In this document: one piece after another, positions 36,122-57,601 of the stretch
How the letters are laid out: every line of letters begins with the position of its first letter
Position numbering within the stretch: position 1 is the stretch's first letter
DNA from: a virus
Strand: one strand, 5' to 3'
Virus record (IMG/VR): IMGVR_UViG_3300030090_003481
Span: 31,092-95,091 of that record
Length of the DNA stretch: 64,000 bases
Notes under the pieces: model-generated
Seen by the model: only the letters and a program-made list of their open reading frames with translations
Told to the model about the DNA's origin: nothing
Databases searched by the model: none
Program-made: the position numbers and the translations under genes

Positions 36122-36155
36122 AAAAAAAAGGAGAACAATTAAGTTCTCCTTCTTT
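36122..36155. terminator. Bidirectional intrinsic terminator at the convergence of the + and - blocks
   Basis: Perfect 9-bp stem AAGGAGAAC (36128-36136) / GTTCTCCTT (36143-36151), with an A-run on the left and a T-rich run on the right. Confidence 0.8.
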
Positions 36156-54982: not shown

Positions 54983-55429
54983 CTAATCTTCCCATAATCT
55001 TTGTTGTTTCTTTAACATTTGGAATGTTTGTTCTCCCTCATTTAAAGATTTTTGTTCTCCTTCTAGTTGTAGTGCTTTGAGTCGTCTTGTCAATATCATA
55101 CACTCTTGCTTTAATTGTGTAAATATTGATCGTTGTAAACTATAAAAGTTAATTACATTAGAATACTTAATCCTATGTGTCATATTAATGTAACATTGAC
55201 CTTTACTATTTCTAAACTGATGACACCAAGTGTTCTGAGACTCTTGTTTTTCTGTAATTAGTTTAGATGATTTACGACAATTCGTTACGTTATCGAATAA
55301 ATTAGATGGTATTCTAATTGTATAACCAAATACAATAGAGTTCTCATCAAATTTCAAATCCAGTGCCTTTTGTTTTACGTGGATAGGCCCTGATATTTCT
55401 TCTCTCCACAGTTTACTGTTTGTTGACAT
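54983..55429 (-). CDS. Hypothetical protein
   Basis: 148-aa ORF in the early block. Confidence 0.45.
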   Translation of the reverse strand: MSTNSKLWREEISGPIHVKQKALDLKFDENSIVFGYTIRIPSNLFDNVTNCRKSSKLITEKQESQNTWCHQFRNSKGQCYINMTHRIKYSNVINFYSLQRSIFTQLKQECMILTRRLKALQLEGEQKSLNEGEQTFQMLKKQQRLWED

Positions 55430-55996
55430 TTTATTATAAAGTTTGATTAGTACAAAACAAGTAAGAACTCAAACAGTATCAAATCTTATACCTTAACTTA
55501 GTTACGACAATAAATAAATAGTATTATAAGACTTGACACTGAATATGGATGAGTTCATACATTTGTCTACATTTACTAACAAACTTGTGACTTAGGTCGA
55601 CATCTCTTACCCTGTACTATAAAGTAAATGTAGATGACGGTAACTAATTAATCTCAGACTGACCTGGCACTCAATCTGTGCTTAGTCTATCCTTATATCA
55701 TTCGTTACATTCTGTGATCCGTTGGATGTTGGGTTGGATGTGGATACAATAAGTTTTTCGACTTTTGCTATATTGTATAATGTAGGACATAATGTAGTCA
55801 TAGTCATATGTGTACAAAACATGGGTTTGTAGATACCCTTGTGTTCACACACATAAATCATGACAAGTTCTGATTGGGGCGTTTTATTTTGTGTAAGAAT
55901 GGACTTATCTTGTGTAAGAATAAGGCTAGACTTGACTAGAATTGTCCTCTACAGTCCTGTGTAATCGTAGAATTGTCTTGACTTGTCCAGACTTTT

Positions 55997-56045
55997 AAAA
56001 AAAGGAGTAGACTGGTGTCTTCGAATCACCTTAATGTCTACTCCT
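55997..56045 (-). terminator. Intrinsic terminator after the first leftward gene
   Basis: 10-bp stem AGGAGTAGAC (56003-56012) / GTCTACTCCT (56036-56045), inner GGTG/CACC, then a U-run on the - strand. Confidence 0.65.
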
Positions 56046-56073
56046 ATGTGTTGACTAGTGTACTACTAAGTTA

Positions 56074-56310
56074 CTACTTAGAAGATACACGGATCGTCTT
56101 CCCTGTTGATAGAGTGTTTAGTTTCTCAGCAGTAGCAAAGACAGAGTATGCCTCACCATCTGAGAAATCTTCTACACCTTCATCACACTTCTCGTTGAGT
56201 ATTACAACAGTGTATGAACGACCATCTGATGCAGTCTGAACCACAGGTGACTCACATCTTTCTTGGTCTTCATTAACGAAGGAAGAAATCGTTCCAATAA
56301 CATATCCCAT
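56074..56310 (-). CDS. Small hypothetical protein, first gene of the leftward block (likely start ATG 56310)
   Basis: MGYVIGTISSF...ASDGRSYTVVIL...; has its own terminator. Confidence 0.55.
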   Translation of the reverse strand: MGYVIGTISSFVNEDQERCESPVVQTASDGRSYTVVILNEKCDEGVEDFSDGEAYSVFATAEKLNTLSTGKTIRVSSK

Positions 56311-56493
56311 AATCGTATAGTTATTAGTCCCCAATATTGAATGTTCTCACACTACATGAGGTTACATTTTTTGGTACGGGGGGATGTTCCGTCCAAAGTT
56401 TTGACGGGGAGTTATTTTCTGTGTGGGTCATGACCTCGAACACATTTTTATTTTTTTTATTTTAAAAAATTTTTTTATATTATTTTTTTTATT

Positions 56494-56501
56494 TATCTTT
56501 G
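56494..56501 (+). promoter_or_regulatory. Bacteroidota -7 element (TATCTTTG) upstream of ncRNA candidate
   Basis: Exact TAnnTTTG in a very AT-rich context; no canonical -33 TTG. Confidence 0.45.
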
Positions 56502-56508
56502 CATATCA

Positions 56509-56715
56509 TTAGTTATATACTAAGACACATCGCCAAGAGAATAAAGGATATGAAGCGGTGCAACTACGTCCTATGGTATATACAATACATACTATATACC
56601 AACACTGTTCTTAATTGAGCAGCTACAAAAGATCTTAGGTGATCTCTTCATTGAAGTTCTGGGAAAATTCAAACGACACAAAAATTTGGGGAGGGGAATA
56701 AGGTGTCGTGACTAA
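56509..56715 (+). ncRNA. Candidate ~200-nt multi-helix non-coding RNA
   Basis: A closing helix plus five internal hairpins. All non-WC pairs are G-U on the + strand. It starts just after a -7 promoter element, and no plausible ORF covers it. Confidence 0.5.
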
Positions 56716-56730
56716 AAAATCTAAAAATAG

Positions 56731-56761
56731 TTGTATAATTGAAATAAAAGTTATATCTTTG
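56731..56761 (+). promoter_or_regulatory. Bacteroidota-type promoter for the packaging block
   Basis: TTG 56731-56733, 20-nt spacer, TATCTTTG 56754-56761. Confidence 0.7.
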
Positions 56762-56792
56762 TACCATTGAATATGTATAGATATATGATATT

Positions 56793-57152
56793 TTGAAAAG
56801 AGTAAAAGCGGATACACTAGATAGAAAAGAATTCTATCCTAAGTATCTGAAATTGGTTAATGTAATATTACCAAAACCACTAACAACAAAGGAGATTGAG
56901 ATATTATCTGCTTTTATGGAGTTACAGGGTGATGCTATCGAAGATGATAGGTTTGGTACACAAGCTCGTAAGTTAGTGAGAGCAAAGTTTGGGTTTAAGA
57001 CTTACTCTAATATAGACAACTATATTAAGTTTTTTAAAAACAAGGGGGTTTTAATTAAGGAAGGTGATAAATTAAAAATTAACAGGAGGATTTTTATACC
57101 CAAAACTGAGAAAGAAGTAGAATTAACGTTTAAATTTAAATTAACAGACTAA
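56793..57152 (+). CDS. Winged-helix DNA-binding protein (TTG start)
   Basis: LTTKEIEILSAF...RKLVRAKFG..SNIDNYIKFFKNKGVL. Confidence 0.6.
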   Translation: MKRVKADTLDRKEFYPKYLKLVNVILPKPLTTKEIEILSAFMELQGDAIEDDRFGTQARKLVRAKFGFKTYSNIDNYIKFFKNKGVLIKEGDKLKINRRIFIPKTEKEVELTFKFKLTD

Positions 57153-57601
57153 TGGCTGGAAAAAATAACTCAGACTTAAAAGCAACAATAGCTTTAAAAA
57201 GTACTAAACTAGAACAAGGAGAGGGGTCTTTAGTGTTTCCTGGTGTAGATATAGATTTTTCTTTAGAAAGAACTTTTTCTATTGATGGAGATCATATATC
57301 ATGGGTAAACATGGATGTAGATAATACAGCTGCTAACAATATATTAACACAAAGAGTAGCTGCTACTGTAGACGCAGAGTCTAGACAGCTATTTTTTGGA
57401 TATAATGCTGGAGACACTGATGTAGTTATAGGTATGTATGATAATAGTGAAACTACTAATCATCCTATTTTATATTTAAAGCCTGGTGAGTGGGCTTTTT
57501 GTCCTTTTAAGTTTGGTCAAGCAACCGATTACTTAAGCGCAAGTGTAGCGTCAGGTACTGGATCTATACAATATGCAATATTTGAATTAGGAGTAAGTTA
57601 G
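57152..57601 (+). CDS. Small beta-sandwich protein, paralog family A copy 4
   Basis: LFFGYN...LYLKPGEWAFCPF...IQYAIFE. Confidence 0.55.
   Translation: MAGKNNSDLKATIALKSTKLEQGEGSLVFPGVDIDFSLERTFSIDGDHISWVNMDVDNTAANNILTQRVAATVDAESRQLFFGYNAGDTDVVIGMYDNSETTNHPILYLKPGEWAFCPFKFGQATDYLSASVASGTGSIQYAIFELGVS

Follow-up and report, generated by a model that had tools for sequence, protein, structure and literature searches.

The window analysed here, a stretch of 64,000 nucleotides, forms the end of a viral record of 95,091 bp. The large terminase encoded in it shares 25-37% identity with Crassvirales terminases, among them those of Flavobacterium phage FpV4, gut crAss-like phages and Cellulophaga phage phi14:2, and judged by this comparison the source phage is crAss-like. 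Neither an integrase gene nor a bS21 gene was found in the phage. The genes are organised into two arms: a leftward arm reaching from ~56310 down to 36154, and rightward genes that begin at 56793, continue up to the last position of the window and also occupy positions 1-36116. The element described here occupies the gap between the two divergent arms and forms the first unit of the long rightward arm with the terminase, portal and virion genes, the terminase and portal lying 4 kb downstream. On the 5' side of its promoter the sequence is AT-rich (56440-56493, + strand); this tract also keeps the two divergent arms apart, and a similar A/T run precedes the -7 box of the homologues.

The gene following the element (56793-57152, + strand; 119 aa) has a TTG start and belongs to phrog_16323, whose function is unassigned, although a gut crAss-like homologue carries the annotation 'transcriptional regulator'. 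It has many marine homologues; the TTG start is seemingly real in the window and in one relative (L005), and other relatives have ATG at the same codon. In one phage group (L011, L016, L033), the element is separated from this next gene, the wHTH gene, by an additional short ORF that encodes a small hydrophobic peptide. On the other side, the divergent leftward arm opens with a gene at 56074-56310 (- strand); it appears in the ORF list as an 86-aa ORF, for which the ATG at 56310 rather than the listed TTG at 56334 is the likely start, as the start region is conserved in the relative L002. The leader of this gene contains a hairpin, GGTACGG...CCGTCC (56380-56402), which in the closest relative reads GGTAGGG...CCCTACC, the stem being preserved by two-sided changes. 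Additionally, ~640 bases between this first leftward gene and a 148-aa gene (55430-56073) lack a credible ORF, keep 70-78% identity in close relatives and may represent another non-coding RNA on the - strand.

A preliminary description of this locus had proposed that the block with terminase and portal is headed by a promoter-driven, structured non-coding RNA of the + strand, and this core proposal is upheld by the upstream -7 box, the bias towards G-U pairs and the covariation set out below. On comparative sequence evidence, positions 56506-56710 of the + strand are the gene for a structured non-coding RNA of ~205 nt, consisting of seven consecutive hairpins (P0-P6) and belonging to a family that is not catalogued in Rfam. 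The 5' end of the RNA was inferred from the promoter and its 3' end placed at the end of P6. Both promoter sites named in the preliminary description are present. The first is a -7 box, TATCTTTG, of the Bacteroidota sigma-A type (56494-56501, + strand), which matches TAnnTTTG. Since this consensus spans -12 to -5 in Flavobacterium (PMC9723704), transcription is predicted to start near 56505-56506. A strict TAnnTTTG box stands directly upstream of the element in 64 of the 78 distinct homologues and a loose TAnnTTG-type box in 8 more; in most of the 64 carriers, the strict box ends 0-10 nt before the element. Four groups (L072, L016, L158 and L045) instead have a TAnnTTGC box upstream of the RNA, a shape shared with the SM5 motif, which was grouped in the F. 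psychrophilum transcriptome with motifs most likely under alternative sigma factors (PMC9723704). The second, promoter-like site lies before the next gene (56732-56761, + strand) and is composed in sequence of a TTG, a spacer and a further TATCTTTG box at 56754-56761.

From a lone genome, a chance fold would be hard to set aside, because folding of the single sequence was not significant (z = -1.85 on both strands). Support for the fold comes from its homologues. Through homologues of the downstream 119-aa gene, 29 viral loci were gathered, of which 24 contained the element upstream according to a motif search, and one more copy (L018) was added later by covariance model. Further copies came from pattern scans of viral contigs, metagenomes and genomes, and the viral and metagenome tallies given here are lower bounds. 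A covariance model (R1) that used 15 close copies as input and took the seven hairpins as its structure scored the element of the window at 225.9 bits and identified at least 81 copies in the fetched loci, 78 of them distinct, with scores of 38-247 bits. The model E-values are rough, and covariance scores of ~30 bits are untrustworthy, because one match of 30 bits, in the genome G055, proved false and was rejected: the matched stretch is protein-coding, and its translation reads as that of a probable dihydropteroate synthase.

In the R1 alignment of the 78 distinct homologues, 95.1% of the cells are standard pairs, compared with 30-47% when the partners are slid by 1-3 columns, and compensatory double changes occur at 39 of the 42 pairs; none of 500 shuffles attained the observed pairing and covariation values. 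As an alignment derived from a covariance model leans towards its own model, the count was repeated on a plain MAFFT alignment of 22 sequences, where 74% of the cells are paired against 34-50% in slid controls, P1 is 100% paired and 5/6 P1 pairs covary. RNAalifold independently recovers P0-P5, and already the closest single relative carries double changes in P1, P2 and P3. The collection of homologues, proposed earlier as a check, has thus yielded strong covariation, also on the MAFFT-only alignment. The proposed comparison with Rfam matched no family: with Rfam 15 (4227 models) at the gathering threshold, there were no matches in the whole window, and at E values up to 10 only three chance-level matches appeared in 55300-57000, all outside the element. 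Group I introns, known ribozymes, 6S, EAR and others gave no Rfam signal. ARAGORN finds no tRNA or tmRNA in the window, in agreement with the earlier impression, and we found no published description of the RNA in the literature. Like other orphan structured RNAs, the family is carried by phages and further mobile elements; what sets it apart is that lytic marine crAss-like phages and integrated islands of Bacteroidota have it in common.

All seven hairpins lie on the + strand. P0 (UUAGU/ACUAA, 56509-13/56519-23) covaries at 5/5 pairs and is kept in the relative L002 with changes in the loop only. P1 (56528-33/56555-60) has a 6-bp stem, CAUCGC/GCGGUG, which is 100% paired in the 78 homologues with 5/6 pairs covarying, and carries a purine-rich, almost invariant loop of 21 nt, CAAGARAA..AUGAA. 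A nearly invariant linker containing ACUACGUC (56561-56573), found in all homologues, leads to two variable, peripheral hairpins that both covary, P2 (9 bp, UGGUAUAUA/UAUAUACCA, 56574-82/56593-601) and P3 (6 bp, CUGUUC/GAGCAG, 56605-10/56617-22), which are both missing in the L045 and L048 groups. P4 (AGAUC/GAUCU, loop UUAGGU, 56630-34/56641-45) abuts P5 (CUUC/GAAG, 56646-49/56653-56); together, these two covary at 9/9 pairs and are 96-99% paired. The linker UUCUGGGAAAAUUCAA (56657-56672), conserved across groups, connects them to P6 (ACGACAC/GUGUCGU, 7 bp, 56673-79/56703-09), where 5/7 pairs covary and where the loop shows a conserved G-run, GGGGAGGGG in the window (56688-56696), followed by AUAAG. 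Across the family, the stems vary by compensatory substitution and the loops and linkers are near-invariant, namely CAAGARAA..AUGAA in P1, ACUACGUC, UGGGAA..UUCAA and the G-run with AUAAG in P6. The assignment to the + strand follows from the upstream -7 box and from the excess of G-U over A-C mismatches, which number 25 against 0 in P1 and 9 against 1 in P6.

On these alignments the RNA is built as seven successive hairpins, whose purine-rich loops are invariant, and not as the closed multi-branch structure first suggested. The five inner helices of that structure (P1, P2, P3, P4 and P6) and the GGGGAGGGG run in its last loop are present, and the helices covary in the 78 homologues. Its closing helix, UUAGUUA/UGACUAA, pairs at 7/7 positions in the window only, at 5/7 in relatives of 90-94% identity and at 1-4/7 in the others, and its 5' half everywhere forms the local hairpin P0 instead. 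P0 and P5 had both been missed. Pseudoknots had also been suggested for the first loop. Pairing of the P1 loop with the UCUCUU or UUUCU tracts showed no covariation by inspection; a contact of the P4 loop with the linker that follows ACGUC is compatible with several groups and fails in the large GUCCAA group; and the one long-range contact from RNAalifold, UCU:GGA, was no better than slid controls. We regard such contacts as unsupported; a purine loop and a pyrimidine tract can be paired in whatever register. A small protein was likewise rejected as the product of the locus, since no conserved frame starts at the AUG of the P1 loop and stops follow in several groups, where AUGAAG in this loop is followed by UAG.

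The transcription unit differs between carriers. In the window phage, no terminator was found following the RNA, which lends no support there to the free-standing RNA of the earlier description. Among 68 distinct copies, only 9 have a terminator-like feature after the RNA, mostly inside downstream genes, and because a terminator is missing in the other 59, transcription from the first promoter in the phages probably runs on into the virion arm. A TAnnTTTG box occurs <=140 nt after the RNA in 51 of the 68 copies, and in some relatives the next promoter begins ~10 nt after P6. A scan covering intrinsic terminators found no strong one in the whole + strand block of the window; the sole strong intrinsic terminator of the scan lies at 36128-36151 on the - strand, in the gap of the converging arms (36116/36154). 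A terminator-like hairpin with a T-run at 57478-57498 is situated inside a 149-aa ORF ~770 nt after the RNA, and one such feature is the chance expectation. In a GC-rich soil variant from a metagenome (L225), a terminator is located 3 nt after the RNA.

In 12 of the 13 phage loci with long flanks, the RNA is located where the coding strand switches and is directed into the rightward arm. The models did not find it in the cultured crAss-like phages FpV4, cr4_1, cr115_1, phi14:2 and PhiCrAssBcn17, and a broader model (R2) found nothing in the crAss001-like phage OQ221552.1, even at E up to 10. The family also extends to cellular genomes. In two small Flavobacteriales genomes, the RNA follows a tyrosine integrase gene and an HTH_17 excisionase-like gene. 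In one of these, a 1.5-Mb genome (G001), these two genes adjoin tRNA-Asp and the RNA starts 18 nt after the HTH_17 stop, within an island of 19.2 kb (G001:C1:670197-689500; L315 8198-10404) whose limits are marked by 15 nt repeated from the 3' end of the tRNA. The island consists, in this order, of the integrase, HTH_17, the RNA and ~17 kb of same-strand cargo encoding secreted and surface proteins only, with Fib_succ_major and laminin-G domains, collagen repeats and T9SS sorting tails. The RNA recurs in a third Flavobacteriales genome (G003), where the 2.5-kb contig is too short for context, and the tRNA-Asp site seen in G001 is again occupied in a fourth genome (G040), by a partial copy of weak score (27 bits). 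The island copies have no strict promoter. Further, the cultured Chitinophaga sp. CF118 carries a diverged but full-length copy (56.6 bits with R2; record NZ_FOMK01000009.1, ~2557-2787 of the locus L289) between two serine recombinase genes, with its own TAnnTTTG box and a terminator composed of a hairpin and a U-run, and with convergent genes downstream.

The RNA is rare: sampling of 151 genomes from the order to which G001 belongs yielded 3 carriers, and a sample of 151 Bacteroidota genomes yielded a single true case (Chitinophaga). For this reason it is not a housekeeping RNA. No protein of the phage neighbourhood was found in the island loci, and the wHTH gene product is unrelated to the island proteins. 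Since no neighbouring protein is common to the phages, the islands and the Chitinophaga element, we consider the RNA to be an independent module.

The reading that we favour, with a probability of roughly 40%, is that of a stable RNA that binds or decoys a conserved host factor. Under this reading, the RNA would be made from the start of infection, while the host polymerase stays active, and would persist in its folded form, either as a terminated species (in Chitinophaga and in the soil variant) or, in the phages, within a read-through transcript whose 5' part it makes up. Its displayed purine-rich loops would bind or titrate the host factor, and the RNA would act alone on a conserved host machine, with RNA polymerase and the ribosome as prime candidates, and not together with a phage protein. 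A conserved host machine is the most likely partner, because the module moves without a protein and its unpaired nucleotides are constant across host classes. A discrete RNA is possible because the Chitinophaga copy, with promoter and terminator, and the soil variant, with its terminator, form units of their own. The stable-RNA reading also draws on a precedent from the crAss-like phage phi14:2, whose early intergenic regions (g004-g006) produce very abundant and persistent non-coding RNAs of unknown function (bioRxiv 10.1101/2020.03.07.982082). The phi14:2 RNAs are among the nearest analogues of the family. There, too, a crAss-like phage, in that case of a marine flavobacterium, has gene-free stretches at one arm end; however, our models find no homology in phi14:2, its regions measure ~1.7 kb compared with 0.2 kb here, and no structure has been described for its RNAs.

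Several observations speak against a stable RNA. With 59 of 68 phage copies lacking a terminator and the island copies lacking a strict promoter, the RNA may never be free in these elements. Sites complementary to the G-rich loop were not enriched over a control pattern in three carrier genomes. The constant orientation into a one-directional block, seen in the 12 of 13 phage loci and in the 19-kb island, is better explained by an element acting in cis. Such an operon-head RNA, acting while nascent on its own polymerase or transcript to secure expression of the downstream block, is a serious contender, if on balance an unlikely one. It could take the form of processive antitermination or of a ligand-sensing leader. 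HK022 put and Bacillus EAR are protein-independent RNAs at or near the head of a long phage or surface-polymer operon, and the RNA described here is likewise placed in cis at the head of a long operon, both in the phage loci with long flanks and in the Flavobacteriales island, where it stands between the integrase and excisionase-like genes and the ~17 kb of cargo. No terminator separates it from the downstream genes in the phages, a conserved host polymerase as partner would fit the absence of a common protein, and the terminators right after the RNA in Chitinophaga and in the soil variant could be read-through or regulated sites. Yet the RNA is 2-3 times larger than put or EAR, shows no homology to them and has no Rfam match; a second promoter stands between it and the genes in 51 of the 68 phage copies; no strong intrinsic terminator, on which antitermination could act, was found in the + strand block downstream; and in Chitinophaga the downstream genes are convergent. 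As regards a ligand-sensing leader, there is no conserved closing helix of the riboswitch-aptamer kind, and a terminator directly after the RNA is seen in two lineages, with a promoter in its place in the phages.

The invariant unpaired nucleotides between variable helices could alternatively belong to a new ribozyme, for example one that excises itself from the read-through transcript. This would need no partner protein and would give the phage copies, which have no terminator, another origin for their 3' end. Against it stand the failure to match any ribozyme family even at E up to 10, the lack of a supported tertiary pairing from which a catalytic core could be built, and a size above that of known self-cleavers, and we hold it to be improbable. 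The position of the element next to a ~60-nt, almost pure A/T tract, where the replication and virion arms diverge, suggests another role, in which the transcript would open or prime an origin at the AT-rich switch through an RNA-DNA hybrid at the G-run, following the logic of ColE1 RNA II or mitochondrial CSB II. The cumulative GC skew turns at the site, the conserved G-run is near the 3' end and the phages have no terminator there; but the skew follows gene orientation, no replication genes were seen in the RNA-carrying islands and the conservation of the loops far exceeds the needs of a primer, which makes such a replication element highly improbable.

The preliminary description had also raised a packaging RNA, a protein sponge and a 6S-like decoy. 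The first of these, taken together with a DNA-level site for packaging, recombination or single-strand functions that would mimic an RNA gene, finds some encouragement in the terminase and portal genes 4 kb downstream, and in the occurrence of the element in both phages and islands; phi29 pRNA is likewise a phage RNA of ~170-200 nt encoded near packaging genes. The packaging reading is nevertheless scarcely credible: no terminase or capsid family was found among the scanned island ORFs and no packaging genes were seen in the Chitinophaga element, the RNA does not match phi29 pRNA in Rfam, crAss-like phages have an ordinary TerL, and the strand-specific G-U pairs in P1 and P6 and a promoter pointing into the element argue for RNA rather than a DNA site. 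Sponges of the CsrB/RsmZ type are likewise strings of hairpins whose loops and linkers contain GG(A), whereas only two GG motifs are invariant here, and CsrA (PF02599) was absent from the phage, the two Flavobacteriales genomes and Chitinophaga (G000, G001, G002 and G004) in a search that detected its controls; a CsrA-type sponge was rejected. Nor does the RNA resemble 6S RNA, including 6S-Flavo, which forms a long rod with a central bubble resembling an open promoter; the RNA described here has seven separate hairpins and matched no 6S or 6S-Flavo model. ROOL and GOLLD are likewise orphan structured RNAs of phages and prophages with well-supported folds and unknown function, but they are 3-4 times larger and form RNA-only cages (PMC12286853), and nothing here points to self-assembly.

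A more far-reaching reading would make the family a protein-independent effector, used by lytic phages and islands alike, that reprograms a machine common to the Bacteroidota, either the sigma-A RNA polymerase or the ribosome, or else a new ribozyme. We rate this reading as distinctly unlikely. In this regard, the anti-Shine-Dalgarno end of the ribosomal RNA is normally hidden in Bacteroidota, and only 5 of 47 starts of the phage's own genes have Shine-Dalgarno-like sites. An invariant GGGAGGGG loop is conspicuous in a genome whose own genes lack such sites, which we offer as a lead only.

The crAss-like phages rank with the most abundant viruses known, and their one well-studied marine representative makes non-coding RNAs that await explanation. 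The present data define an RNA family with a well-supported fold that spans lytic phages, tRNA-integrated islands and a cultured Chitinophaga, an unusual spread, and its travel without a partner protein narrows the search for its function to host machinery that is conserved. Because one copy resides in a cultured bacterium, this function is accessible to bench experiments. Should its target be the polymerase or ribosome of the Bacteroidota, the RNA would represent a novel way of taking over the host and a new tool for this phylum, in which the signals for transcription and translation are unusual; should it prove to be a protein-independent effector, it would found a functional class of its own among the RNAs of mobile elements, or be a new ribozyme.
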